A stretch of DNA of 24,000 nt. Source: Candidatus Micrarchaeota archaeon (GTDB lineage Archaea; Micrarchaeota; Micrarchaeia; Micrarchaeales; Micrarchaeaceae). The position numbers and the translations under genes are program-made. Under the pieces are notes generated by a model. The model was not told where the DNA came from and made no database searches. It worked only from the letters and a program-made list of their open reading frames with translations. Of this stretch, positions 4,703 to 20,413 are shown piece by piece. How positions within the stretch are numbered: the first letter of the stretch is position 1; every line of letters starts with the position of its first letter. The stretch is taken from positions 104,272-128,271 of the forward strand of contig JAJYYB010000010.1 in assembly GCA_021801355.1 (NCBI GenBank). Reading direction: 5' to 3'.

Positions 4703-6262
4703 ATGCAAAAGCTATCGCTTGGGGAATTCTCTATTTATACCGATAAAATACTTAGCTCCAGCTCGGCATACGCGATAAAAGCTAATGCCGAGGCGCTGGG
4801 ATTGAATGAAGCTTTACAGGTTGAAAACGCAGGTGCAGCAGTTGCAAATAGGATAAGAAAGGCGCACAAAAACGCCAAGATGCTTTTCATATGCGGTGCA
4901 GGTGGGAAGGGTGCGGTCGGGCTTTCTGCCGCAAGGCACTTATCTGACTACAGTGAAATCGTGGCATGCTTTCTTGGCAGCTTAGACGGCATATCGAACG
5001 AGACAACAAGGCTTAACTACACCCTGCTTTCCGACATTCTTGAGATACATGATGTAGAAGCCGGGGAAAGCGCGATTGTTAAGGCCGAAGCGAGGGATGC
5101 GGATATAATCGTTGACGCGATTACAGGGATAGGGCTTAGGGGGAAACTGCACGAGGATACGGCAAAGATTATAGGGATTATCAACGATGCCAAAAGGCAT
5201 CTTGTCTCGATAGATATCCCTAGCGGCGTAAATCCCGACATAGGGGATGCGACCGGGGCCTATGTGCATGCAGATGAACTCCTTGCGCTGCACAAGCTCA
5301 AAAGCGGTATCATGGGGAGCACATTCGTAGGCAGTACAACAGTATTGGACATCGGAATACCTATTAGCGCTGAACTCCTTACAGGAGCAGGTGATGTCAG
5401 ATTGGCTGCGCTTAGTAGGCCCGCTAATGCTAACAAGTACACAGTAGGCAGCGTGCTCGTAGTGGGAGGCGGCGAGGAGTACCATGGGGCGCCCATACTT
5501 GCAGCAAATGCAGCAAATTCGGCACTTGCTGCGCTCAGGACAGGTGCTGGTTACGCCACGATTTTTGCACCTAAGAGCAAGGCGGAGATAATTAGGAAAC
5601 TATCGCCTAACATAATAGTGCGCGCTTACAAGGATGAGAACTTATCTAAGGATGTAGTGGCTGGAGTAGAAAATATCAGGCACGATGTTGCGGTCATAGG
5701 CCCGGGTCTCGGGAAGGGCGAGGATGTTTATGACGGGATTGCTGCTCTGGTGGAAAACGAAACGCGCGCAGGAAAGTTGATATTGCTAGATGGAGACGCG
5801 ATAGGTGCCATAGCAAGGCATAAGAGGCTTCTCGGGAAGAACATCGTCTTGACTCCGCACCATGGTGAATTCAGTGCATTGGTAGGCGTAGACCAGAAAG
5901 ATGCGGAGCCAGAGCAGCTTGCAAATAGGGCCATATCTTTCGCAAAAAACTATAACTGCGTAATTGTGCTGAAGGGCCACGAAACATTCATAAGCGATGG
6001 CAACAGGCTAAAGATAAACAGGGCGAAGAGCAGCGCGCTGGCGACCATGGGAACGGGCGACGTACTTTCAGGCATAATAGGCGCTTATCTTGCCATGAAC
6101 CGCAGACCGTTCGAAAGCGCTACCGCCGGGGTTTACTTGCATTCGGTGATAGGGGATGCGCTCAATAAATCACATGGCAATCACATACTGGCCGAGGATG
6201 TGATTTTGGGGATTAGGGACCTGGCAGGTTCGCTGGGCAGTGGCAAGGGTGTGTTAGTTTGA
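4703..6262 (+). CDS. nnr: Bifunctional NAD(P)H-hydrate repair enzyme Nnr (YjeF_N epimerase plus ADP-dependent dehydratase)
   Basis: The 519-aa ORF has an N-terminal LMENAG-like region (QVENAGAAVAN, FICGAGGKGAVG, VDAITGIGLRG, SIDIPSG). Its C-terminal carbohydrate-kinase-like half reads KYTVGSVLVVGGGEEYHGAPILAANAA, GPGLG, LTPHHGEF and GTGDVLSGIIGAYLA. A TTTTAAAC TATA-like box lies about 25-30 nt upstream of the ATG. Confidence 0.9.
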   Translation: MQKLSLGEFSIYTDKILSSSSAYAIKANAEALGLNEALQVENAGAAVANRIRKAHKNAKMLFICGAGGKGAVGLSAARHLSDYSEIVACFLGSLDGISNETTRLNYTLLSDILEIHDVEAGESAIVKAEARDADIIVDAITGIGLRGKLHEDTAKIIGIINDAKRHLVSIDIPSGVNPDIGDATGAYVHADELLALHKLKSGIMGSTFVGSTTVLDIGIPISAELLTGAGDVRLAALSRPANANKYTVGSVLVVGGGEEYHGAPILAANAANSALAALRTGAGYATIFAPKSKAEIIRKLSPNIIVRAYKDENLSKDVVAGVENIRHDVAVIGPGLGKGEDVYDGIAALVENETRAGKLILLDGDAIGAIARHKRLLGKNIVLTPHHGEFSALVGVDQKDAEPEQLANRAISFAKNYNCVIVLKGHETFISDGNRLKINRAKSSALATMGTGDVLSGIIGAYLAMNRRPFESATAGVYLHSVIGDALNKSHGNHILAEDVILGIRDLAGSLGSGKGVLV

Positions 6263-8241
6263 GCGCTGATGTTGGAGCTTCGCCTTATAAGGCAATGGAG
6301 GGGCAGTTGGTTGCAGCGTTGACCGAAGCTGCGCGGCTCTGCGGCTATCCGACCGAAGAAAACGAAGTCGGGCAGAGCATTGATATGGCTAGGGGATACG
6401 GCGACATATCATCAACGATAGCGCTAAGGATAGGAAAGAAATTGGACAAAAACCCGATTGATATAGCGAACGCCATAGCTTCCAAAACTAAAATGCCGAA
6501 ATGCATTAAGGAGATTACAAAGGAGAACGGGTTCATAAATTTCCATATAGACAGGGAGATTTTCCCTGTACTTGTACTGCCCGAGATATTGAAGCAGAAA
6601 GATTCTTACACAAGGTCCAACTTAGGTAATGGCAAGAAGGCCATAGTAGAATATCCGAGCGTAAATCCTGTGCACCCTTGGCATGTGGGCCAAGTAAGGA
6701 GCGCGCTCTTGGGCGACACTGTGGCAAACATAATGGAGCGTTGCGGCTACATCACCGAAAGGATAGACTATATCGATGATTTGGGGCTTCAGGTCGCAGA
6801 AGTAATTTGGGGATGGCTGCATCCTGGCGTGCTGAATGACTACATACAGGGCGAAGACCTGAAGTCGATAGACCTGCTCTTGGGGCTTAGCAAGCCGAAC
6901 CTCACGACACCGAAAGACGGGAAAGGCAAAAGGGTCGACTACATTATAGGAGAGATTTATGTTGCCGTAAACAAGTACATGAACGACCATAAGATAGACG
7001 ATCAGGTGAAGGACGTGCTCAAGCTGATGGAGCAGCCGGGCACTAGGGAAGCGAAGCTGGCGAGGAGCATAGCAGAATATTACGTCAGGGCGGAGTACGA
7101 AACGGCTTTCGCGTACAACATGTACCATAGCGCGCTCATATGGGAGAGCGATATAATCAGGGACCGCATGCTAGAGAGAGCGCTCGATAAGCTCAAGGGC
7201 AGCAAGATCGTGAAGGTCGCTACCGATGAGAAGTACGCAAACTGCCTGGTTATAGATTTCAATTCTGTTGAGAACCTGCCGCAAGAATTCAAGGGCCTCA
7301 AGGAGGAGGTCAAGGTGTTAATAAGGAGCAACGGGACACCAAACTATCTAGCGAAGGATATAGCGTTCCACATGTGGAAATTCGGCATAATACCGAGCTC
7401 CTTCACGTACACTAAATTCATTGATAAGCAGCCGAACGGAGTCGCCCTTTATACCACAGGCGCAGAGGGGGCGCAGATGGACTTCGGTGACGCTTCAATA
7501 GCCGTGAACACGATAGACTCAAGGCAGAGTTACGAACAAGCACTTGTCAGACTTGCAATAAAAGAGACCGGGTATCCGCAAAAAGCCTCTGGATTCAAGC
7601 ACCTCGCCTACGGCATCGTAGAACTTGAGAGCGGCGCGCTGGCAGGCAGGAAGGGCACCTGGATTGGTTATACTGCGGATGACCTCCTTAGGGAGGCCAG
7701 AGAGAAGGCGCTTTCGCTCATAGGGGAGAGGTTCAAGCTAAGCGATGAAGAGAAGGTTGGGATAGCAAACGAAACTGCTTTATCCGCAATAAAATTCGAG
7801 TTCCTGAGGCTTTCTTCGGAGAAGAACTTAGTGTTTTCATGGGAGAGGGCATTGAACTTTGAGGGTAATTCGGGCCCTTATTGCGAGTACATGTATGCGC
7901 GTTCGACAAGGATCATGGAGAATGCGGGCGTGAAGGATGGTGCGCTCGGCATGGCGGAATTCGCACTGCTGAACAGCGAGATAGAATTCGAGCTAATAAA
8001 GAAGATGTCGATTGCAAAGGACATACTCGAGAAGTCATGCAACGAATACAAGCCCAACATGATAGTCGAGTATATGTGCGAGTTAGCGCTGCTCTTCGGA
8101 AAGTTCTATGAGCAGAAGCAGGTGCTCAAAGCAACCACGGATGCTGAGAGGGTGGCGAGGCTGGCAATTGTGGAGTGCTTCAGGACGGTCATGCAAGGCA
8201 TGTTCAGGGCATGCGGCGTAAATCCAATCAATAGGATGTGA
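6259..8241 (+). CDS. argS: Arginyl-tRNA synthetase
   Basis: VEYPSVNPVHPWHVGQVRSALLGD is the HIGH region. LIRSNGTPNYLAKDIAF is the ArgRS omega-loop motif. A DALR anticodon-binding C-terminus ends in ...GVNPINRM, the typical terminal Met. The start is ambiguous. TTG at 6259 overlaps the nnr stop (TTGA, 4-nt overlap), while the first ATG is at 6295 (MEGQLVAAL...). Confidence 0.9.
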   Translation: MSADVGASPYKAMEGQLVAALTEAARLCGYPTEENEVGQSIDMARGYGDISSTIALRIGKKLDKNPIDIANAIASKTKMPKCIKEITKENGFINFHIDREIFPVLVLPEILKQKDSYTRSNLGNGKKAIVEYPSVNPVHPWHVGQVRSALLGDTVANIMERCGYITERIDYIDDLGLQVAEVIWGWLHPGVLNDYIQGEDLKSIDLLLGLSKPNLTTPKDGKGKRVDYIIGEIYVAVNKYMNDHKIDDQVKDVLKLMEQPGTREAKLARSIAEYYVRAEYETAFAYNMYHSALIWESDIIRDRMLERALDKLKGSKIVKVATDEKYANCLVIDFNSVENLPQEFKGLKEEVKVLIRSNGTPNYLAKDIAFHMWKFGIIPSSFTYTKFIDKQPNGVALYTTGAEGAQMDFGDASIAVNTIDSRQSYEQALVRLAIKETGYPQKASGFKHLAYGIVELESGALAGRKGTWIGYTADDLLREAREKALSLIGERFKLSDEEKVGIANETALSAIKFEFLRLSSEKNLVFSWERALNFEGNSGPYCEYMYARSTRIMENAGVKDGALGMAEFALLNSEIEFELIKKMSIAKDILEKSCNEYKPNMIVEYMCELALLFGKFYEQKQVLKATTDAERVARLAIVECFRTVMQGMFRACGVNPINRM

Positions 8242-10907: not shown

Positions 10908-11381
10908 TTAGGCGGCTACATAACCGTTAGGGTCTACCAGAACGAACCCATCATCTCCAAGGGATGAGTCGAAGTGGTATCCGTCGTCGCCAAATGTGGC
11001 CTCTATTATGTAGAGTTTGTAGCCTGGCTTGATTATCAGTATATGGCTTTGGTTCGTAGCCGTGAGGGAGAGTTTTACTTCTGAAGAGCTATTTTGCAAT
11101 TGGATTGATGTTATATTGAATCCAGCAAGAGCCGAAGCAGCTTGCTGGGAGATGGGCTCCGGGTATATCTGGTACGAGTACGGTGCATATTGGGTATTGG
11201 CAAATAGTACTTTTGATGAGTTTGTGCTCGTCTGATTTGACGGTGCGGCCTGCTGGCTATTCTGCGAATTTATTAGTGTACCGGAAGTTCCTTGATGACC
11301 GACTAATATGAATGCAAATGCGCCAACTATTAGTGCAAGTATAAGTATGCCCCCTATTAATTTTGTATTCATATGGATCAC
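10908..11381 (-). CDS. Hypothetical exported or membrane-anchored protein
   Basis: The 157-aa ORF has an N-terminal anchor (KLIGGILILALIVGAFAFILV) followed by a Ser/Asn/Gln-rich linker with sequons (NQT, NSS, NIT, NSS, NQS) and a beta-rich C-terminus. The start may instead be the second Met (MNTK, 11372). I recognise no family. Confidence 0.5.
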   Translation of the reverse strand: MIHMNTKLIGGILILALIVGAFAFILVGHQGTSGTLINSQNSQQAAPSNQTSTNSSKVLFANTQYAPYSYQIYPEPISQQAASALAGFNITSIQLQNSSSEVKLSLTATNQSHILIIKPGYKLYIIEATFGDDGYHFDSSLGDDGFVLVDPNGYVAA

Positions 11382-11402
11382 TTACCGCATTGAACTATTA
11401 AA

Positions 11403-11927
11403 TCATACAGGACTGAACTCTGCTAGTTTCTTCCACCATTTTATTCTTTTCTCGATATAATAATCTATCGAGTATTTACTTGGTCCATACTTAGCGTTTA
11501 TAAGTATGAGAGCGAGGAAGACAAAAGCGTATATCACCCCTGTACCTATATCTGTAGAACCTGGACCGTACGGACCCCCGAAACCTTCTGGTACGGACCA
11601 TATTATTAAACTCAATAGGATTCCAGCTGTATACGTTATCTTCCTCAGGCTTCCAGAGATTAACGCTATGCCTAACAGTAGTTCGCCACCACCTATAAGA
11701 TAAACCCAAATAGCCGGATTTTGACTTACGACACCTGCCCAAAAGTTAAACCATGGCATGAGCCATGCGGGCTGGCCCTGACCTGCAGCCTGAACCAATT
11801 GCGGGAATACTGATACCATGCCAGGCTGGAACTTTAATGACCCATCAATGACCCACACAAAGCCAAAGACTACCCTCATAAAGATTTTCAGTCCTTCGCT
11901 GTTCCTGTATAACCAGTGTTCTTTCAT
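11403..11927 (-). CDS. DoxX-like family integral membrane protein (putative)
   Basis: The 174-aa ORF has 4 TM segments. Its pattern FMRVVFGFVWVIDGSLKF ... GGGELLLGIALISG ... resembles the DoxX/DoxD small membrane protein architecture, with the R-x-x-x-G...G-x-x-K and E-x-x-x-G motifs. A TTAAATAT box lies about 30-39 nt upstream on the coding strand. Confidence 0.45.
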   Translation of the reverse strand: MKEHWLYRNSEGLKIFMRVVFGFVWVIDGSLKFQPGMVSVFPQLVQAAGQGQPAWLMPWFNFWAGVVSQNPAIWVYLIGGGELLLGIALISGSLRKITYTAGILLSLIIWSVPEGFGGPYGPGSTDIGTGVIYAFVFLALILINAKYGPSKYSIDYYIEKRIKWWKKLAEFSPV

Positions 11928-12076
11928 AAAAAGCCCCTAATAGGCTAACTTTTCTTACATATTTAACTTGCCGGGTATAAAAAATTATACCTGCACTTGC
12001 TATTAAAATGTATGATGGATGGGGCTGATTACAGGTTATCCGTCATTATAAGTTAACAAATGGAAAAGGATTAGAA

Positions 12077-12577
12077 TCAAGCTTCCTCTGTCAGGTCGGC
12101 TCCTTCATCATCGAATTCTGCTGTCTCGAAGTCCTCTGGACCGTATTCCTCGAATTCGGTAGAGCCAGGGACATCTACGAATTGCGGCCCTCTTTTTGCG
12201 TTTTCACGGGCCTCTTCAGCTGCAGCCACGTGCCGATGCTGGTAGATGTTCATTGCTAAATATACTGCGCCGAGACCAACTGCCACAGGGAATGCAACTG
12301 TGGCCACGACTACCGTAGCAGCGCTGCTTGCAGCCCCGGCTGCTATAGCGAGCGAACCGAGCGCTGCAAGAGAGACTGGCCGCTTGTTTTTATTGTACAC
12401 TCTTGCAAAGTCCTCTTCCCTCTTAGCTATCGCGTTTTGCTCCTTCTTGTACTCGGCTTCATAATCAGAATCAGAGTACTTCTTTGATGCGCGCTGCCTG
12501 AGCAGATGCTCGTCAGTATAGTTGCGTTGAGCGTTTGTCGATTCTTTTTTCGTCTTCTCGGCCTCCATGATTACCAT
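12077..12577 (-). CDS. Hypothetical single-pass (or hairpin) membrane protein with a charged N-terminus and an acidic C-terminal tail
   Basis: The 166-aa ORF has an Ala/Gly/Val-rich hydrophobic core (LAALGSLAIAAGAASSAATVVVATVAFPVAVGLGAVYLAMNI). This is flanked by a Lys/Glu-rich N-terminus and a C-terminus rich in D/E/F (EFEEYGPEDFETAEFDDEGADLTEEA). A CTATATAC box lies about 34-41 nt upstream. I recognise no family. Confidence 0.45.
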   Translation of the reverse strand: MVIMEAEKTKKESTNAQRNYTDEHLLRQRASKKYSDSDYEAEYKKEQNAIAKREEDFARVYNKNKRPVSLAALGSLAIAAGAASSAATVVVATVAFPVAVGLGAVYLAMNIYQHRHVAAAEEARENAKRGPQFVDVPGSTEFEEYGPEDFETAEFDDEGADLTEEA

Positions 12578-12632: not shown

Positions 12633-14030
12633 TTATTTGGGCTGTGGCTGCCCTAATAGCCTCAGGAGCTTTGAGAGGCTGGACTTCGGCGGCTTGGCCT
12701 TTATTACGGGCTGGCTGTCATACGTGTAATCGTAGTCGGAAACGCCCATGAACTGTATGAAAGCGTGGTTTTTGTCGCGCTCCCCTGCTATCATGTATGG
12801 TAGCGGGTTCGTAGGATCTATCACAAAAGTCCTTCCGTCTATCTCAACCTCGACCCATGCATGCAGAGCGTTGCTGTTGCTGCTCATTGCCGTGCCGCCC
12901 ACGAAAAGCGGTGCCGCACTGGACTTCCCCTCAGCAAGCTCCTTCTTGAGGATCATGCACGTTATAAGTGCATACTCAAAGCAGACGCCGGTGCCGTTCT
13001 TGCCGAAGATACTCCTTTTCTTGTACTTTATAAAGTGGTCAAGCGGAATGTCTTCGACATTGTCATTGTATTTGGTAACTATCTTCTCGTAGCCGTGCAG
13101 ATCGTATTGTATGTTGTTATGGACGTAGTTTGCCAAGAGTATGACCTTGAGCAGTTTCTCTGCGGTAGCCTTGTTTCCTACAAATTTGATAAGCTGCTGC
13201 TTTGTCCCATCCGAGAGAGTGTTCTTGGTGGCGTAGGTTTCCGCATCGGTTATGAACTTTGACAGGATCCCGTCTGTCGGCTGGGGTATGCGTATGCCGT
13301 ATCCGCCATTGGTAACGCGCTCACCATAATTGAATGGATATGCGTAGTTGTTGGGATCTGGCCTTATTTCCGAATTGCTAGGGATTTTCTTGTTCAGTAT
13401 GTCCATCCTCGGAGGATTCTTGTCAAGCACTATTGTCGAGTCGTTGCCTATCTCTGTCTGCTCGATATCTAGTATTGTCAGCCTGTCCAGCTGGGCGCCG
13501 TTTTCAGTGGCGCTTGTGACGTTGCTCTTTATGTGCGATATGAATACCAGAAGCTTGCCCTCCCCTACGTCTATAGATGTGCCGCTTTCAATCTTTGAAT
13601 GTATGACAGTTATAACGCTGTTCTTTCCGTGGGCTATCAGCGTGACGTTCTTGTCTATCTGTGAGTTCTCTATGTAGTTGTTATCATCATCGCTCGCGTT
13701 CTTCTTGCGCGAACCGAAGCTCACTATGGTGCAGTGGGACCCTATCTTGCAGTCCTTCAACTCTATGTCCCCATACACGACAGCGCTTTTCGCTATAGTG
13801 GTGTTATCCAGGCGCACGTTTGCGCCGACCCAGCCGCCCTTGCTGCCGTCCGGATTGCTGTGCCTCCTGAGCTCTATCTCTCTCTCCTTGCCGTTGATGT
13901 TCAGCTTGGCCTTTATGGGCGTGTCCTCATTCTTTAGGTTGCTAACGTAATTGGAAAGGCTCTCAGCACTTTCGAAAACAAGCATCTTCTGTGCGCTTGC
14001 ATCGTTCTTGCGCTCTATGCTCTTCGACAT
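12633..14030 (-). CDS. Transglutaminase-like cysteine protease-fold protein with an N-terminal beta-helix-like repeat domain
   Basis: The 465-aa ORF has a C-terminal core carrying the transglutaminase-like triad context: GTGVCFEYALITCMIL (Cys350), NALHAWVEVEIDGRTF (His390) and VIDPTN (Asp405). Residues about 68-205 show hexad-periodic short beta-strand repeats (YIENSQIDKNVTLIAHGKNSVITVIHSKIESGTSIDVGEGKLLVFISHIKSN...). These are reminiscent of left-handed beta-helix or bactofilin-like folds. I see no signal peptide. GGGGAG lies 5 nt upstream of the ATG. Confidence 0.7.
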   Translation of the reverse strand: MSKSIERKNDASAQKMLVFESAESLSNYVSNLKNEDTPIKAKLNINGKEREIELRRHSNPDGSKGGWVGANVRLDNTTIAKSAVVYGDIELKDCKIGSHCTIVSFGSRKKNASDDDNNYIENSQIDKNVTLIAHGKNSVITVIHSKIESGTSIDVGEGKLLVFISHIKSNVTSATENGAQLDRLTILDIEQTEIGNDSTIVLDKNPPRMDILNKKIPSNSEIRPDPNNYAYPFNYGERVTNGGYGIRIPQPTDGILSKFITDAETYATKNTLSDGTKQQLIKFVGNKATAEKLLKVILLANYVHNNIQYDLHGYEKIVTKYNDNVEDIPLDHFIKYKKRSIFGKNGTGVCFEYALITCMILKKELAEGKSSAAPLFVGGTAMSSNSNALHAWVEVEIDGRTFVIDPTNPLPYMIAGERDKNHAFIQFMGVSDYDYTYDSQPVIKAKPPKSSLSKLLRLLGQPQPK

Positions 14031-14118: not shown

Positions 14119-15339
14119 CTAGTCAAATGCCCTAAATTCGTCCCCGAGCACTGCAGCAGCTATCTTCAGCTCCTGAATCTCGTCACTTCCCTCATATATC
14201 CTCGCCACGCGGCTGTCGCAGAAAAGCCTGCCAACAGGGGAGAGCAGGGAGTATCCGAAGCCGCCGAAGACCTGCACGCCCCGGTCTGCGGACTCGAAAG
14301 CTAGCCTTGAGGCGATCTTCTTGGCAAGCGAAACGCGCATGTCCACCTCTTCCCGTAGCTCATGGTTTCCTGGATTCTGCTCGTATTCGGCTTTCCTAAG
14401 AGCAGCGAAATAGACAGGCCAGCGCGCCATCTCGAGATTCTGCCTTATCTCTGCTATGTGCCTCTGTATCAGCTGGTGCCTGCCTATCGGCTTGCCGAAC
14501 TGGACGCGCTCCTTAGACCTCGCCACCACTGCGTTTAGGCACCCCTCTATTACACCTACACAGCCGGATGCGACACCAAGGCGTGCGTTCAAAAGGGCGG
14601 AGTAAGCTATGCCGAGGCCTTTTCCTGGTTCGCCGAGCATATCGCCTTCTGAAACCTCTACACCATTAAATTCAAGCATGGCTGTATCGGATGTCAGCAA
14701 GCCTATCTTGTCCCTCAATGCCATTCTGTTCAATCCTGCGGAATTACCGTCTACTATGAAAGCGCTTATCTGATCCGATTTGTCCTTTGATCGTGCGAAA
14801 ACGATTATGTTGTCTGCTATCGTTCCGTTGGATATCAGGTATTTTGTGCCGTTGAGGATGAACCGGTCGCCCTTCTTCTCGTACTGCATTTTCAATGAAG
14901 CTGGATCGCTGCCTGCCTCAGGCTCAGTCAGCCCAAAGGCGAACACCTTATCCGCGCTCACTATGGATTTGAGATAACGACTCTTCTGCCCATCGTTGCC
15001 CCACCTCTGCAGGGTTTGGCCGCATAGCAGTACCTGCACATTGTAGAAACTCGAGAATCCAAGGCCTATCTGGCCAAGTCTTTCCTTCGTCAGCACAGTT
15101 ATTAGGGGCTTGGCGCCAGAGCCGCCGAACTCTTTCTTTATCGGTATGCCGAGTAAGCCGTACTTAGCAGCTATCTTCGGTGCATCTGAATTGAATTCAT
15201 GCTTTATGTAGTGCTCAAATTCAGGAACCGTCATTTCTTCAGCGGCCTTGTCAGCTTTTTCAAGTATAGAAAACTCCTCATTTGAGAAATTGTAAAAATT
15301 CTTTAGGTCGTCTATCGCCTGTTGTAAAAGCTTCTCCAT
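14119..15339 (-). CDS. Acyl-CoA dehydrogenase (FAD-dependent)
   Basis: The motifs FGLTEPEAGSDPASL, YLISNG, GLGIAYSALLNARLGVASGCVG, RVQFGKPIGRHQLIQ, VQVFGGFGY and ARIYEGSDEIQ (catalytic Glu region) are diagnostic. I place the start at the ATG at 15339 (MEKLLQQ...), not the track start at 15378, which would overlap the upstream stop. GGTG lies upstream. The gap to the coaBC stop is 16 nt, so co-transcription is likely. Confidence 0.9.
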   Translation of the reverse strand: MEKLLQQAIDDLKNFYNFSNEEFSILEKADKAAEEMTVPEFEHYIKHEFNSDAPKIAAKYGLLGIPIKKEFGGSGAKPLITVLTKERLGQIGLGFSSFYNVQVLLCGQTLQRWGNDGQKSRYLKSIVSADKVFAFGLTEPEAGSDPASLKMQYEKKGDRFILNGTKYLISNGTIADNIIVFARSKDKSDQISAFIVDGNSAGLNRMALRDKIGLLTSDTAMLEFNGVEVSEGDMLGEPGKGLGIAYSALLNARLGVASGCVGVIEGCLNAVVARSKERVQFGKPIGRHQLIQRHIAEIRQNLEMARWPVYFAALRKAEYEQNPGNHELREEVDMRVSLAKKIASRLAFESADRGVQVFGGFGYSLLSPVGRLFCDSRVARIYEGSDEIQELKIAAAVLGDEFRAFD

Positions 15340-15355
15340 GTTCACACCATCGTAT

Positions 15356-17314
15356 TCATTGAATAGAACCAAGCTCACTTATTATCTGGAATGCCAATTC
15401 CTCTTTTGTACCATCTATAAATCTTGCTTTCCCGCTCTTTGATATAATATATGCAGGATGCTTTTTACCATTTATCTTGTTCAAGTCGTTTACGACCATG
15501 AGAGCGGCACCTATCTCTTTCATTCTCTTGGTGCCTGCACTTATGAGTTTTGTATCTGGAAGTCCTGCCTCTAACTTAAATCCTACGATTAAAATTTTTG
15601 GGAACATCTTTGATATCTTCTCTATTGTCTTTGGTGTCGGCTTCAATGTAATCTTCCATTCGGCATCTGATTTTACTTTGGAGCTGACATATGCACTAGG
15701 CTTAAAGTCTAGTATCGCTGCAGGAAACATTACTATGTCGTACTTGTTGGAACTGAGTTCTGAGACAGTGCTTTCAAGCATCTCCTCCACGGTTGCTACA
15801 TTTATGGACCTTAAATGCCTTGGAGGCTTAACGATCGCAGGACCAGTTATTACTGTGACGTTAGAACCGGCTTTGAAAGCTTCCCTTGCGATTGAAGCGC
15901 CAAGCCCGCCGCTTGAGTAATTTGATATGTAGCGCACCGCATCTAAGTTGTATCTGGTAGGGCCGGAAAGTACCAACACGCCCTTGCCATTGAGCCTTCC
16001 CACCGCTATCTTCCTGAAAACGTTTTCTATGACCTCATCCCTGCGCGGTATTTTAGCTATTCCCTCCTCGATGCGCGGCGCTATTACCGTGGCGCCTCTC
16101 TTTCTCAATTCATCAAGCCCCTCCTTAAGGAGGTGGTTCTGATACAGTTTCATGTTCATTGCAGGCACTATAACTAATTTGTCACCAGGATTTGAAGCGC
16201 ATAAAGTAGTAACTGCATTGTCGGCTATCCCCAATACGATCTTCCTTATAGTATTGAACGTAGCTGGATAGACGAGCACCACGTCATAATCGGATAGATG
16301 TTCGGCCAGGCCGCTAAGCTCAACGAAGACCTTCCTTCCAGTCGCCCATTCCATAAGCTTTGGGCTCAGACCGAACTCTATGGCGCCATGGGTCATGAAG
16401 CAGTCAATAGTGCATCCGTTCCTCCTGAGTTCCCTCGCGATTTTTGGAGCGCCTATGCAGGCTACGCTGCCTGACATACAGAACGCAACTTTTACGTCAT
16501 TCATCCTGTTATTCTTAAGCTCTATCTCTCCGCCTGGTGCATGCTCCGCCATCAAGTTACTATAATCATTGAAATGCCCTGTGCACGAATTGCCTTCGCA
16601 GTACAGTATCCTTGATTCTGTCTTATTCTTCGATATTGATATGATTGTGGAAGAAGTCATTGTCCAGTCATTTTTACCATGGAAGCAGATTGCAGGGTGG
16701 CCGTGTTCCGATTTATGGTCTGCTGAGAGAACCTTGAGCCCCTCTATGGCTGAATTCGCATCTTTAAGCGAGAGTTTTGATGCTAGGTCGATGGCACGCT
16801 TCTCCCTCTCTTCAGAAGCGTGGATTATGTCTGCAAACACAGAGCCATATTTCGTATTCTCCCGTCTTGTAAATGATGTCATCACATGGATCCCTGGTTT
16901 AAGCTCTGATTTTTTAATGTGGCCGTCCTCGAAAAGTATCCTGAACGCGTTCTGCCTGTCAGCGATTATGAAGTTGCCCCTCTTATATCCGTTAAGCAGT
17001 TCCTTCTCGAGGTATTTTACTGCGTCCTTCGAGTTTTTGAACATGCCAAGCACATCCTGGATGAGAAGGCCACGGCTTCGCCTGAACTGCGTATCTATAC
17101 CGCTGTGCTGGTCGCTTACGGCTGCAAAAACTCCGGAATCGTTGAAGCCCACCCATGTGCCGTTGCTTCTGACGTCAACTGGAGCGTATATCTTTTGTGA
17201 AGATGCTGTTTTCCTAGGAGGGTACTCTAGAGTGCCTGCCCTTTCGTACCTGTTGTGCATAGCTACTATCGGCGCGTCTTTTACTACCTTATACAGGAAT
17301 ACAAGTGTGCACAT
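15356..17314 (-). CDS. coaBC: Three-domain fusion protein: NRDE/TANGO2-family (Cys2 Ntn-like) domain, phosphopantothenoylcysteine decarboxylase (CoaC) and phosphopantothenate-cysteine ligase (CoaB)
   Basis: This is one uninterrupted 652-codon ORF. Residues 1 to about 255 read MCTLVFLY...IVAMHNRYERAG...NGTWVGFNDSGVFAAVSD...RSRGLLIQDVL...NGYKRGNFIIAD...PAICFHGKNDWTMTSSTIISI. By eye these match the NRDE/TANGO2 blocks (MC start, NRDE, GGTWLG, G-x-x-AALTN, RG-x-L, YGTR-x-x-T). Residues 271 to about 432 read VAFCMSGSVA, YPATFNTIRKIVLGIADNAVTT and VIVPAMNMKLYQN (flavoprotein CoaC). Residues about 443-652 read VLSGPTRYNLDAVRYISNYSSGGLGASIAREAFKAGSNVTVITGP and PAAILDFKP (CoaB/DFP). Confidence 0.85.
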   Translation of the reverse strand: MCTLVFLYKVVKDAPIVAMHNRYERAGTLEYPPRKTASSQKIYAPVDVRSNGTWVGFNDSGVFAAVSDQHSGIDTQFRRSRGLLIQDVLGMFKNSKDAVKYLEKELLNGYKRGNFIIADRQNAFRILFEDGHIKKSELKPGIHVMTSFTRRENTKYGSVFADIIHASEEREKRAIDLASKLSLKDANSAIEGLKVLSADHKSEHGHPAICFHGKNDWTMTSSTIISISKNKTESRILYCEGNSCTGHFNDYSNLMAEHAPGGEIELKNNRMNDVKVAFCMSGSVACIGAPKIARELRRNGCTIDCFMTHGAIEFGLSPKLMEWATGRKVFVELSGLAEHLSDYDVVLVYPATFNTIRKIVLGIADNAVTTLCASNPGDKLVIVPAMNMKLYQNHLLKEGLDELRKRGATVIAPRIEEGIAKIPRRDEVIENVFRKIAVGRLNGKGVLVLSGPTRYNLDAVRYISNYSSGGLGASIAREAFKAGSNVTVITGPAIVKPPRHLRSINVATVEEMLESTVSELSSNKYDIVMFPAAILDFKPSAYVSSKVKSDAEWKITLKPTPKTIEKISKMFPKILIVGFKLEAGLPDTKLISAGTKRMKEIGAALMVVNDLNKINGKKHPAYIISKSGKARFIDGTKEELAFQIISELGSIQ

Positions 17315-17481
17315 TTAATCCGTGTTTGATTTCGCTGACAAGAAATAAACACATGAAACTTCCTTAATACTTTCCTTGCAATTGAATGGCTATTTCTTCT
17401 CTAATAAATTTTACGCGCCTCAGGTACAAATCCACACCGCCATATTTTGCTTAAAGTAGCAAAATGGGCAGTAGATATGTC

Positions 17482-17489
17482 TTTAAATA
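17482..17489 (+). promoter_or_regulatory. TATA box (TTTAAATA) for coaD
   Basis: The box ends 26 nt upstream of the ATG at 17516, which implies a leaderless or near-leaderless transcript. It lies in the 201-bp divergent intergenic region shared with the NRDE-coaBC gene. Confidence 0.4.
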
Positions 17490-17515
17490 TAAAACTGCAC
17501 TTTATATGGAGTTAA

Positions 17516-18007
17516 ATGAGGATTGCGATTTACGCGGGAAGCTTTGACCCGCCTACCCTTGGCCATCTATGGATGATAGAGCGAGGAGCCTCGCTTTTCG
17601 ACAGACTGGTAGTCGCTATAGGCACCAACACTGAGAAAAGGTACACTTTCTCAGTCGAGGAGAGGCTAGATATGCTTGCCAAGCTCACAGAGAAGTACAA
17701 GAACGTAAAAGTAGACTTTTTCAAGAACCAGTTTCTGGTAAAATATGCGAAAATTATGGGAGCAAACTACATCATACGTGGCATAAGGACCGAGGCTGAT
17801 TTTCAGTATGAAAGAGATATGCGCCTGATAAATGGAGACTTGGAGCCGAGCATAGAGACTGTGTTCCTGATGCCACCGCGTGAAATAGCTGAGATAAGTT
17901 CAAGCTTTGTCAAGGGGCTCGTTGGTCCGCCGGGTTGGGAGAAGATCGTTAGCAGATACCTGCCTGGACCCGTCTACAAGAAGTTCATAACCAAGCTTGG
18001 CAAGTAG
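17516..18007 (+). CDS. coaD: Phosphopantetheine adenylyltransferase, bacterial CoaD type
   Basis: The 163-aa ORF reads IAIYAGSFDPPTLGHLWMIERGASLFDRLVVAI (T/H-x-G-H nucleotidyltransferase motif), YIIRGIRTEADFQYERDMRLIN and ISSSFVKGL. It is collinear with bacterial CoaD (for example the E. coli motifs AVYPGTFDPITNGH, IRGLRAVADFEYE and ISSSLVKEV, recalled from memory). Confidence 0.88.
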   Translation: MRIAIYAGSFDPPTLGHLWMIERGASLFDRLVVAIGTNTEKRYTFSVEERLDMLAKLTEKYKNVKVDFFKNQFLVKYAKIMGANYIIRGIRTEADFQYERDMRLINGDLEPSIETVFLMPPREIAEISSSFVKGLVGPPGWEKIVSRYLPGPVYKKFITKLGK

Positions 18008-19247: not shown

Positions 19248-19330
19248 GTTGCCCCTATCCAAATCTGTTCACCAAGCCTAATTCACATGGTAATAATTTA
19301 TCTCTTTCCTTACATTAAATTACTGATTTG

Positions 19331-20413
19331 ATGAGAAGCGTCGCGAATAGGATTGCAAGGATATTCGAATCGTTCAAGGGCGACGCGGTGCTGCTTTACA
19401 ACACCGGGCTAGTTGACAGCAACTTCCTTTACATGAGCGGCTTCACGAGCGGCATATTCGAAAATAGCACCTTGATTGTGACCAGGCGTGGAATGCTGCT
19501 GCTGACCAGCGAACTTGAGTACGACACTGCGCGCTCTCAGATGCCGAGGGAGATGACAGTGGAGAAGTGTGCCGGAGGCAAGCAACTGGGGGATAAGCTC
19601 TCCGCGCATCTCAGGGGCAAGGTTGTTGGGGTAAATGCCGACTTCCTCCCTTACAAACACTTTATTAATCTGAAGAAGCTCTCCAAGGCGAAGGGCTTCA
19701 TTGATGCGTCTGCAGCGTTCTCGGATGCTAGGCTGATAAAGGACCCGGACGAGATAGGGAGTATAAGGGAAGCGGTAAATATAGTAAAAAGGTCTTTCGC
19801 AGAGATTGATAGGTATTTTAAGGAAGGGATTACGGAAAAGGAGCTGGCGGCTGAGTTCGATTATATAATGAGAAAACACGGTGCAGCGGAGCCATCGTTC
19901 AAAACCATAATAGCCTTTGGGAAGAACGCAGCGCTACCGCATCACGCCCCTGATAATACGCGATTGAAGGAGAATGAATTCGTGCTTATAGACGCCGGTG
20001 CGAAGTACAAGAACTACTGCTCGGACCTTACGCGCACCTTCATATTCAAGCCGGATACCAAATCAGAAAAGTACAGGAGGATGCAGGATATGATAGAAGT
20101 CGTAAGGAAGGCCCAGTCGCTTGCGCTTAAGGCGATAAGACCCGGGGAGGAGGGCAGCGATATACACAAGGTAGCTGCCGATTACATAAACAGCGCGCAC
20201 AACGGCATTTACAAGGGCAAATTCATACACGGGCTCGGCCATTCGATAGGCATAGATGTGCACGATGGTGCAAGGATTTCTAGCTTAGCAAAGACAAAAC
20301 TGGAAAAAGGCATGATCTTCAGCGACGAACCAGGCATCTACTTGGTAGGATTCGGAGGGGTAAGATTTGAAGACGACGTTCTTGTAGAGGAAAACGGTGG
20401 AAGATTCTTGTGA
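19331..20413 (+). CDS. pepQ: M24B family Xaa-Pro dipeptidase/aminopeptidase (prolidase-like)
   Basis: The pita-bread fold metal ligands sit in the expected context: LIDAGAKYKNYCSDLTRTF (Asp, Asp), HGLGHSIGIDVHD (His), FSDEPGIY (Glu) and GGVRFEDDVLV (Glu). The ATG is at 19331, whereas the track begins one codon earlier at TTG 19328. Confidence 0.85.
   Translation: MRSVANRIARIFESFKGDAVLLYNTGLVDSNFLYMSGFTSGIFENSTLIVTRRGMLLLTSELEYDTARSQMPREMTVEKCAGGKQLGDKLSAHLRGKVVGVNADFLPYKHFINLKKLSKAKGFIDASAAFSDARLIKDPDEIGSIREAVNIVKRSFAEIDRYFKEGITEKELAAEFDYIMRKHGAAEPSFKTIIAFGKNAALPHHAPDNTRLKENEFVLIDAGAKYKNYCSDLTRTFIFKPDTKSEKYRRMQDMIEVVRKAQSLALKAIRPGEEGSDIHKVAADYINSAHNGIYKGKFIHGLGHSIGIDVHDGARISSLAKTKLEKGMIFSDEPGIYLVGFGGVRFEDDVLVEENGGRFL

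Follow-up and report, generated by a model that had tools for sequence, protein, structure and literature searches.

A single open reading frame (ORF) of a Candidatus Micrarchaeota archaeon joins a domain that we assign to the TANGO2/NRDE family with a complete CoaC-CoaB, the bifunctional protein (CoaBC) of coenzyme A (CoA) biosynthesis. We analysed a stretch of 24,000 nucleotides, hereafter the window (contig JAJYYB010000010.1 of assembly GCA_021801355.1, positions 104,272 to 128,271), in which the ORF occupies 15356..17314 on the minus strand (652 codons, with the stop included in the coordinates), a strand that the initial annotation of this DNA had not given. It translates to a protein of 652 amino acids, in which profile matches delimit a TANGO2-like domain, a linker, CoaC and CoaB in this order. 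The pairing of TANGO2 with CoaBC is evolutionarily maintained over deep divergence, and the genomic link between TANGO2 and CoA synthesis is real but limited to one archaeal clade. What the N-terminal domain (N-domain) does for its partner is a matter of graded likelihood, and we tentatively favour a role as an accessory enzyme on a pantetheine-type substrate.

The three-domain architecture proposed in the initial annotation, NRDE/TANGO2 followed by CoaC and CoaB, was borne out by Pfam searches, with all three profiles scoring above their cutoffs. The N-terminal TANGO2/NRDE domain (residues 1-255, 16550..17314, minus strand) matches TANGO2 PF05742 over residues 1-231 with E=5.5e-13 (50.1 bits versus a cutoff of 22.6), and the match takes in profile positions 1-246 of 257. 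CoaC, the phosphopantothenoylcysteine decarboxylase flavoprotein (residues 273-430, 16025..16498, minus strand), matches Flavoprotein PF02441 over residues 275-420 (E=1.6e-17, above the curated cutoff), and CoaB, the phosphopantothenate-cysteine ligase (residues 441-652, 15359..15994, minus strand), matches DFP PF04127 over residues 441-614 (E=2e-40, likewise above the curated cutoff). The NCBIfam equivalog coaBC_dfp (TIGR00521) runs across both enzymes, from residue 273 to 648, at 268.5 bits versus a cutoff of 219.7 and over profile positions 3-391 of 392. The signatures of both enzymes are kept, namely H339 and the PAMN motif in CoaC, and the GPTRxxLDxVRxISNxSSG motif and K546 in CoaB. Among 27 CoaBC sequences, H339, M386, G451, D458, R461, G469, G472, K546 and S549 are invariant, and P452 and T453 nearly so. 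In addition, the CoaBC part aligns over its full length with Mycobacterium smegmatis CoaBC (6tgv), and the CoaB domain matches PDB entry 5int with E=9e-26. Judged from its sequence, the C-terminal part is a complete, bona fide CoaC-CoaB, with both activities predicted. The sequence blocks on which the annotation had relied are all present in the translation, including HNRYE (residues 20-24), NGTWVG, GVFAAVSD, RGLLIQDVL and CFHG...TSSTIISI in the N-domain, the linker AEHAPGGEIELKNNR, PATFNT, PAMNMKLY and DAVRYISNYSSGGLG further on, and Met271.

We then asked how securely the N-domain can be placed. All 15 of 15 aligned homologues match PF05742 (best E=1.6e-20), and two of the 15 also match Pfam AAT weakly. 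Compared directly by sequence, the N-domain matches the solved human TANGO2 weakly (E=0.24 with a single sequence, 0.0017 with a profile), so that its place in the family depends on the Pfam profile and the fold prediction. An AlphaFold2 (AF2) model of the N-domain built on 36 homologues reached a predicted local distance difference test (pLDDT) of 94.7 and a predicted template modelling score (pTM) of 0.92. In a Foldseek search its top matches were the human TANGO2 structures 8sv7 and 9bwa (E ~1e-12 to 1e-11, template modelling score (TM) 0.65-0.68), followed in order by bacterial CV2077 (3gvz), acyl-CoA:isopenicillin-N acyltransferase, C69 cysteine dipeptidase, bile salt hydrolase and penicillin V acylase (BSH/PVA), and N-acylethanolamine acid amidase (NAAA); with the acyltransferase 2x1d/e the TM was ~0.70. 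The comparison with N-terminal nucleophile (Ntn) hydrolases that the annotation had proposed thus yields a confidently modelled alpha-beta-beta-alpha fold of the Cys-Ntn hydrolase type, with human TANGO2 as its best match. The same fold has been assigned to human TANGO2 in two crystal-structure papers (PMC12359130, PMC13044924). On profile and model we place the N-domain in the TANGO2/NRDE family, within which the active-site differences described below set it apart as part of a divergent subfamily.

The N-terminus of the fusion protein is strictly defined. Its first two codons on the minus strand are ATG-TGC (Met1-Cys2), and an in-frame TAA at 17315-17317 lies immediately 5' of the ATG (TAA and both codons together, 17309..17317, minus strand), which makes an N-terminal extension impossible. 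Methionine aminopeptidase tolerates Cys as the second residue, and from this specificity we infer that Met1 is removed, which would leave Cys2 as a putative N-terminal nucleophile. Cys2 is invariant in 36 of 36 aligned family members, and in nearly all of the 39 genomic loci described below a start codon (ATG, GTG or TTG) is directly followed by Cys. Such strict conservation of the position behind the start codon agrees with the earlier suggestion that Cys2 is a potential nucleophile. Additionally, the TANGO2 domain is always N-terminal to CoaBC, or the TANGO2-like gene always upstream of it, and this fixed order is the only arrangement that leaves the nucleophile at a free N-terminus. In several database entries for fusions the putative nucleophile is hidden by automated gene calls: proteins P0003, P0005, P0017, P0021, P0026 and P0031 were called from a downstream Met and lack the Met-Cys N-terminus, while the upstream start codon and Cys are visible in the DNA for P0017 (L002) and P0021 (L003).

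Beyond Cys2, the residues R22, P33, G52, W54, R81, G82, H212 and S221 are invariant over fused, standalone and distant members, and N21 is nearly invariant. HNRYE (residues 20-24, 17243..17257, minus strand) stands at the NRDE position, as the annotation had it, and retains N21 and R22; the motif is not intact, however, for its Asp is replaced by Tyr23, and this Tyr is invariant across the archaeal subfamily. An alignment of 15 members shows no variation at R22 and Y23, and Ser in place of N21 in two sequences. Every fused and every close standalone member has the motif as H-N-R-Y-(A/E), the fourth residue of the NRY(A/E) stretch being mostly Ala, and canonical NRDE occupies the same columns in more distant prokaryotic homologues. 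Among the partner residues of a Cys-Ntn site, Cys2 and R22 are therefore conserved, with Asp replaced by Tyr. The Asp of NRDE is one of the residues proposed to be catalytic in human TANGO2, as are N75 and N157 (PMC13044924), and the NRDE motif has been reported as required for acyl-CoA binding by the human protein (PMC11867700). In the window protein, human N75 corresponds to D68 and human N157 to S147; S147 departs from the subfamily consensus and from the canonical Asn, and its equivalence with N157 is our reading of the alignment. The N157-equivalent position varies among homologues, being N, S or P. Because NRYE, D68 and S147 all differ, the human active-site model is not simply transferable.

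D68 (codon 17111-17113, minus strand) deserves attention of its own, being the only position that separates CoaBC-linked (n=24) from standalone (n=39) N-domains. It is Asp in 88% of the linked domains, Asn in 74% of the standalone ones, and Asn in all canonical outgroups. It aligns with human N75, which adjoins the site of the pathogenic T74P substitution. A split between Asp and Asn at a proposed active-site position suggests functional tuning that accompanied the linkage to CoaBC.

We next considered whether the fusion might be an artefact, that is, a chimeric assembly, a frameshift or a mis-called ORF merging two genes. Relatives do have split versions with overlapping genes, which lends the idea some initial appeal. 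Yet the identical 652-amino-acid protein is encoded on eight contigs from ENA, Logan and other sources, spanning several samples and assemblers, and in the three of these contigs that were displayed the flanking genes are identical too; the architecture is common to 36 homologous clusters; and the linker is in frame, with a junction conserved as GE/ELxxK type. Mis-assembly or frameshift, against which the annotation had advised a check, can therefore be rejected, and the artefact explanation is effectively refuted.

The inter-domain linker (residues 256-272, 16499..16549, minus strand) comprises ~17 residues, is predicted to be flexible, and varies in length and sequence among homologues. In the AF2 monomer model of the full-length protein the domains are well folded (pLDDT 89.8) and the overall pTM is 0.64; linker pLDDT is 64-66, dropping below 50 at residues 258-261. 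Given this low-confidence linker and the pTM, the tether is best regarded as flexible and no domain orientation as trustworthy. The annotation had also suggested that CoaBC could be expressed separately from an internal start at Met271 (codon 16502..16504, minus strand). We found no support for this: the residue is Leu in most homologues, the nearest GGAG lies ~24 nt 5' of the ATG and is too distant to serve as a Shine-Dalgarno site, and the CoaBC genes of split relatives begin ~8 codons upstream of the Met271 position. We thus rejected Met271 as a conserved internal start.

To find out how far the architecture extends, we searched with the whole protein and clustered the matches at 90% identity. 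All three Pfam domains are carried by 36 clusters, with lengths of 589-681 amino acids and 41-58% identity to the query, and the entries are named only "CoaBC" by those sources that give a name. The initial annotation knew of no described NRDE-CoaBC architecture, and in a full-text literature search we likewise found no paper mentioning a TANGO2-CoaBC fusion. We further scanned an N-domain profile against one genome per prokaryotic species and classed the loci by BLAST against the window proteins. The scan returned 39 loci, nearly all from Bathyarchaeia, together with Baldrarchaeota and a few metagenome-assembled genomes (MAGs) labelled Thermoprotei or Nitrososphaerales; the species genomes closest to the window N-domain are Bathyarchaeia, at no more than 46% identity. 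The fusion occurs in eight species genomes, mostly Bathyarchaeia, as a single ORF at seven loci (L001, L002, L003, L007, L009, L010, L012) and with the N-domain broken across three frames at one (L037). A separate TANGO2-like gene lies directly upstream of CoaBC at two loci, overlapping it in L011 and broken across three frames in L038. Another 28 loci (L004-L006, L008, L013-L036) hold a standalone gene of ~255-270 codons with no CoaBC within ~8 kb, and L039 holds a 50-amino-acid fragment.

The nearest unfused CoaBC proteins tell the same story. All four informative cases (P0040, P0041, P0042, P0043) have a TANGO2-like gene as the next one upstream, in the same orientation; three of these genes run 11-50 nt past the CoaBC start, and that of P0042, as called, stops 35 nt short of CoaBC. 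The split pair of P0043 is present in two independent samples. The contig of P0044 starts 80 nt before its CoaBC gene, so that the upstream neighbour is not visible. Hence the order TANGO2-then-CoaBC marks one CoaBC clade, whether as a fusion or as adjacent or overlapping genes. A neighbour-joining tree of N-domains does not sort fused, adjacent and standalone forms into separate groups but intermingles them, which suggests several fusion, fission or relocation events, although the tree carries no support values and is weak evidence for repeated events. An exhaustive profile search gave ~2,950 family representatives, and among the best 150 of these the only non-standalone forms are the CoaBC fusion (P0163 and the fragment P0164) and a fusion of TANGO2 with a glycosyl-hydrolase-2 (GH2) sugar-binding-like domain (P0212, P0290). 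The latter proteins are ~410 amino acids long, and in a bacterial contig the same small GH2-like domain is encoded directly downstream of a standalone TANGO2 gene (L050:4806-5258). As a separate observation, the TANGO2-like frame is split into two or three frames at L037:7995-9952, L038:7977-8747 and L036:7995-8742, either because a dispensable domain is decaying or because of sequencing errors in the MAGs.

On these data we tentatively favour the reading that the N-domain is an accessory enzyme on a pantetheine-type substrate, coupled to CoaBC in CoA salvage, repair or editing. Once Met1 is removed, Cys2 would act as a free N-terminal nucleophile, and the N-domain would cleave or transfer the amide or thioester of a pantetheine-type metabolite, in keeping with the amidase or thioesterase about which the initial annotation had speculated. 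Among the closest characterised enzymes, NAAA and BSH cut amides of ethanolamine, taurine and glycine, and isopenicillin-N acyltransferase takes its acyl group from acyl-CoA. The pantothenoyl-cysteamine and pantothenoyl-cysteine amides built by CoaB and CoaC resemble the amides cut by NAAA and BSH, and a pantetheine-type substrate would fit this chemistry. Spent, damaged or mis-ligated (phospho)pantetheine-type species would be hydrolysed by the N-domain to 4'-phosphopantothenate, and the attached CoaBC would re-ligate the released 4'-phosphopantothenate to fresh cysteine, thereby achieving salvage, repair or editing. Consecutive or corrective steps of this kind would be the most economical logic for a fusion. 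The N-domain would be accessory rather than essential to CoaBC, since it is split off or decayed in some relatives. Several published observations on TANGO2 point in a similar direction: the human protein binds CoA and acyl-CoA (PMC11867700), and vitamin B5 rescues phenotypes of TANGO2 models (bioRxiv 10.1101/2022.11.04.514597). A salvage or repair role is also consistent with the suggestion that CoA salvage is defective in TANGO2 deficiency (PMC11179719), and a docking pose in which Cys2 sits on the pantothenate amide of palmitoyl-CoA points the same way (PMC12359130). In the window lineage, moreover, a CoaD gene adjoins the fusion.

A number of observations weigh against this role as an accessory enzyme. 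To our knowledge, no activity is known for any TANGO2 family member. Where a catalytic Asp has been proposed, the archaeal subfamily has Tyr without exception, and the window protein departs from the human protein at both proposed Asn positions. The monomer model offers no confident inter-domain contact. In L037 and L038 the N-domain is frameshifted while the attached or adjacent CoaBC is intact, and P0045, at 40% identity, sits in a classical archaeal CoA cluster (ketopantoate reductase, pantoate kinase and phosphopantothenate synthetase) that lacks a TANGO2 gene. None of the 28 standalone subfamily genes has CoaBC, CoaD or acyl-CoA dehydrogenase within about 8 kb, none of four sampled bacterial NRDE genes has CoA biosynthesis neighbours (a sample too small for statistics), and by BLAST neither CoaD nor the acyl-CoA dehydrogenase lies beside any other fused or paired locus among the 39. 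Cleaving the product class of the attached enzyme also risks a futile cycle unless the N-domain is specific for aberrant species. Finally, acyltransferase activity has been reported as excluded for human TANGO2 (PMC11867700). The CoA-pathway neighbourhood that the initial annotation expected of NRDE genes accordingly holds for the fused and paired archaeal clade, and fails for the 28 standalone and the four bacterial genes.

Three other functional accounts of the fusion have to be weighed against an accessory enzyme. The N-domain could be a regulatory sensor that binds CoA or acyl-CoA without turnover and allosterically throttles CoaBC, a form of feedback control. CoA thioesters do inhibit bacterial CoaBC. 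Loss of the NRDE Asp and the variability of the N157-equivalent position (N, S or P) would fit relaxed catalysis, and the dispensability of the domain, split off or decayed in relatives, can be counted on the same side, as can the report that human TANGO2 binds acyl-CoA and CoA with no enzymatic activity found (PMC11867700). However, a strict start codon plus Cys2 with a stop directly upstream bespeaks a nucleophile requirement, which a binding module does not need, and the motif altered here is precisely NRDE, which human TANGO2 is reported to need in order to bind acyl-CoA. The separate-gene versions would moreover need a stable protein-protein complex, and the linker is predicted to be flexible, with no confident interface. 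We regard a sensor as possible but doubtful. Further from our data stands a supply of substrate, in which the N-domain hydrolyses a cysteine conjugate or other precursor amide and feeds L-cysteine or 4'-phosphopantothenate to CoaB, much as class II (Ntn-type) glutamine amidotransferases do for their synthetases. In its favour, the architecture matches (a Cys domain that has to be N-terminal, then a synthetase), the structural matches include C69 cysteine dipeptidases, and the gene of an M24 peptidase lies at a distance of ~2 kb in the window and is likewise found at three standalone loci. Yet the model gives no sign of a channel or interface (pTM 0.64), CoaC rather than CoaB adjoins the TANGO2 domain, and the best Foldseek matches belong to the choloylglycine-hydrolase-like group rather than to GATase-2; the idea is entirely speculative, and we think it very unlikely.

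It is also conceivable that the two halves have no direct biochemical coupling, the N-domain serving a CoA-unrelated function such as lipid-amide hydrolysis or haem handling, with a chance upstream position in one archaeal ancestor followed by fusion through a small indel. Indeed, most of the subfamily stands alone, and the neighbours (HibA-like CBS protein, 2-hydroxyacid dehydrogenase, ornithine cyclodeaminase, radical SAM) are not CoA genes, the bacterial sample has lipid-type or unrelated neighbours, overlaps of 11-50 nt ease accidental fusion, and bacterial HtpA has been assigned to haem trafficking (PMC10470608). In contrast to what such an accident would leave behind, the pairing persists at 41-58% identity in both halves and in at least 36 clusters, with fused and split states interleaving in the tree, and so long a persistence would hardly be expected if the fusion to an essential enzyme were neutral. 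Additionally, the sole residue that distinguishes linked from standalone domains, D68 versus N, falls at a proposed active-site position. An uncoupled fusion is therefore quite unlikely in our judgement. The accessory enzyme on a pantetheine-type substrate remains the reading that we prefer.

The fusion protein can be compared with several known systems. Like human TANGO2 and other members of PF05742 (formerly DUF833), its N-domain gives a near-whole-domain profile match and has a Met-Cys N-terminus and the conserved N-R, GTW-G and RxRG blocks; unlike human TANGO2, with which it shares ~14% identity, it carries NRYE and D68/S147, is fused to CoaBC and belongs to an archaeal cytosolic context. 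The remainder resembles Escherichia coli Dfp, M. smegmatis CoaBC (6TGV) and TIGR00521 in its CoaC and CoaB motifs and in the full-length alignment to 6TGV, and differs from these bifunctional CoaBC/Dfp proteins in having an additional N-terminal domain of ~255 residues and a linker. Classical archaeal CoaBC differs in context, as in P0045 with its cluster of ketopantoate reductase (KPR), pantoate kinase and phosphopantothenate synthetase (PPS) and no TANGO2. The predicted fold and N-terminal Cys are shared with acyl-CoA:isopenicillin-N acyltransferase (2X1C/D/E), BSH, PVA, NAAA and acid ceramidase. In these choloylglycine-hydrolase-like enzymes, however, the nucleophile is exposed by autoproteolysis, whereas in the window protein removal of Met would presumably suffice, and the Asp of the clan is a Tyr. 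Class II glutamine amidotransferases (PurF, GlmS, AsnB) offer an architectural analogy, a N-terminal Cys domain fused upstream of a synthetase; they belong to another Ntn branch, are absent from the 50 best Foldseek matches listed, and make ammonia, which CoaB does not use. For the proposed reaction, a functional analogy is provided by Vanin-type pantetheinases, whose Cys nucleophile hydrolyses the pantothenoyl-cysteamine amide; Vanins are eukaryotic ectoenzymes of the nitrilase superfamily with an unrelated fold, and no homology to them was detected. Shewanella HtpA is prokaryotic and cytosolic and belongs to the same Pfam family, yet it is a canonical, standalone DUF833 protein encoded beside a metal transporter, and nothing haem-related is found in the fusion locus. 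HtpA, a bacterial TANGO2 homologue, has been assigned to haem trafficking (PMC10470608), a role that has been questioned for animal TANGO2 homologues (PMC12782551, PMC13044924).

TANGO2 deficiency causes a lethal metabolic disease in children, and what the protein does at the molecular level is disputed, with a haem carrier, an acyl-CoA binder and an Ntn hydrolase all proposed. Clinical and fly data on vitamin B5 and CoA lack a mechanistic anchor, and the fusion supplies evidence of a kind different from the cell-biological data. The claim of the initial annotation that it constitutes independent genomic evidence for a family acting on CoA-type substrates stands insofar as the pairing is maintained, and is curtailed by its restriction to one clade and by the altered active site. 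The fusion does give independent genomic support for a TANGO2-CoA link, and conserved pairing, by fusion or by translational coupling, with the enzymes that make 4'-phosphopantetheine from 4'-phosphopantothenate and cysteine narrows the substrate search to pantetheine-type molecules. Transfer to human TANGO2 is a hypothesis rather than a conclusion, because the subfamily is divergent (NRYE) and the link clade-restricted, and the value of the fusion for the TANGO2 field is tempered by the same divergent active site and clade-restricted linkage. At its boldest, one could suppose that the whole TANGO2 family, human included, consists of Cys-Ntn amidohydrolases acting on damaged or acylated 4'-phosphopantetheine or CoA in a loop of salvage and repair, with 4'-phosphopantothenate being returned to CoaBC (in humans, to PPCS/PPCDC). 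We hold this to be rather unlikely; if true, such family-wide CoA repair would explain how pantothenate supplementation bypasses TANGO2 deficiency, and the archaeal fusion would be its Rosetta stone. In practical terms, the fusion offers a tractable prokaryotic protein for domain deletion, a C2A mutant and coupled assays, and archaeal CoA biosynthesis gains an unrecognised accessory module in proteins that databases label simply "CoaBC".

The genes flanking the fusion are in part related to CoA. The window is archaeal in content, with Nre and GatD/GatE. An acyl-CoA dehydrogenase (ACAD; 14119..15339, minus strand) with Pfam Acyl-CoA_dh N/M/C domains has its called start 17 nt after the fusion stop on the same strand; it scores below every NCBIfam equivalog cutoff and is a probable operon partner of the fusion, in the window lineage only. 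On the other side, a bacterial-type CoaD (phosphopantetheine adenylyltransferase, 17516..18007, plus strand; TIGR01510, 179.7 bits versus a cutoff of 103.3) is transcribed divergently from the fusion gene across an intergenic region of 198 bp (17318..17515), where promoters are presumed. CoaD performs the step following CoaBC, and archaea normally use a eukaryote-like phosphopantetheine adenylyltransferase (PPAT); as a bacterial-type gene amid archaeal ones, the window CoaD looks horizontally acquired. The other loci described above led us to reject a conserved CoaD/ACAD neighbourhood, and beyond the fusion, CoaD and the acyl-CoA dehydrogenase no CoA-pathway gene was found in the window. The M24 peptidase mentioned above, a Creatinase_N + M24 protein (19328-20413, plus strand), lies ~2-3 kb from the fusion gene. 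Genes for Creatinase_N + M24 peptidases are also found ~2-3 kb from standalone TANGO2-like genes (L004:10046-11176, L006:3659-4864, L051:7972-9081), two of these loci being from Baldrarchaeota MAGs, and this proximity may be a remnant of synteny that shows where the TANGO2-like gene originally lay.

Around the standalone and distant family members, the neighbours are of other kinds. Recurrent ones in the archaeal subfamily are a HibA-like CBS protein, a 2-hydroxyacid dehydrogenase, an ornithine cyclodeaminase/mu-crystallin homologue and radical SAM proteins, with ATP_bind_1 and inositol-1-P synthase in addition; those of the four bacterial NRDE genes are patatin, KAS III-like, DedA/SDR/OlsB-like or GH2_N2-like. 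The CBS + S30AE/HPF protein is encoded divergently beside the standalone TANGO2-like gene of Bathyarchaeia (L013:716-1960, minus strand), with an equivalent in 24 loci (L013-L036), and a CBS + S30AE architecture has been described as the archaeal ribosome hibernation factor HibA (PMC13324472). One of these contigs, L026 (DATKWN010000038.1), is binned as "Candidatus Krumholzibacteriaceae bacterium" and shares its TANGO2-like gene and the neighbours of that gene with L020, L023 and L028 from Bathyarchaeia; the binning is probably wrong.

Elsewhere in the window, a bifunctional NAD(P)HX epimerase/dehydratase, which is a metabolite-repair enzyme, is encoded at 4703-6262 on the plus strand and overlaps the start of an arginyl-tRNA synthetase gene (6259-8241, plus strand) by 4 nt. 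Three consecutive ORFs of 157-174 amino acids with no Pfam match occupy 10908-12577 on the minus strand, and upstream of them, at 12633-14030 on the minus strand, lies the gene of a 465-amino-acid protein whose sole match is a C-terminal transglutaminase-like DUF553; all four run in the direction of the ACAD and fusion genes.

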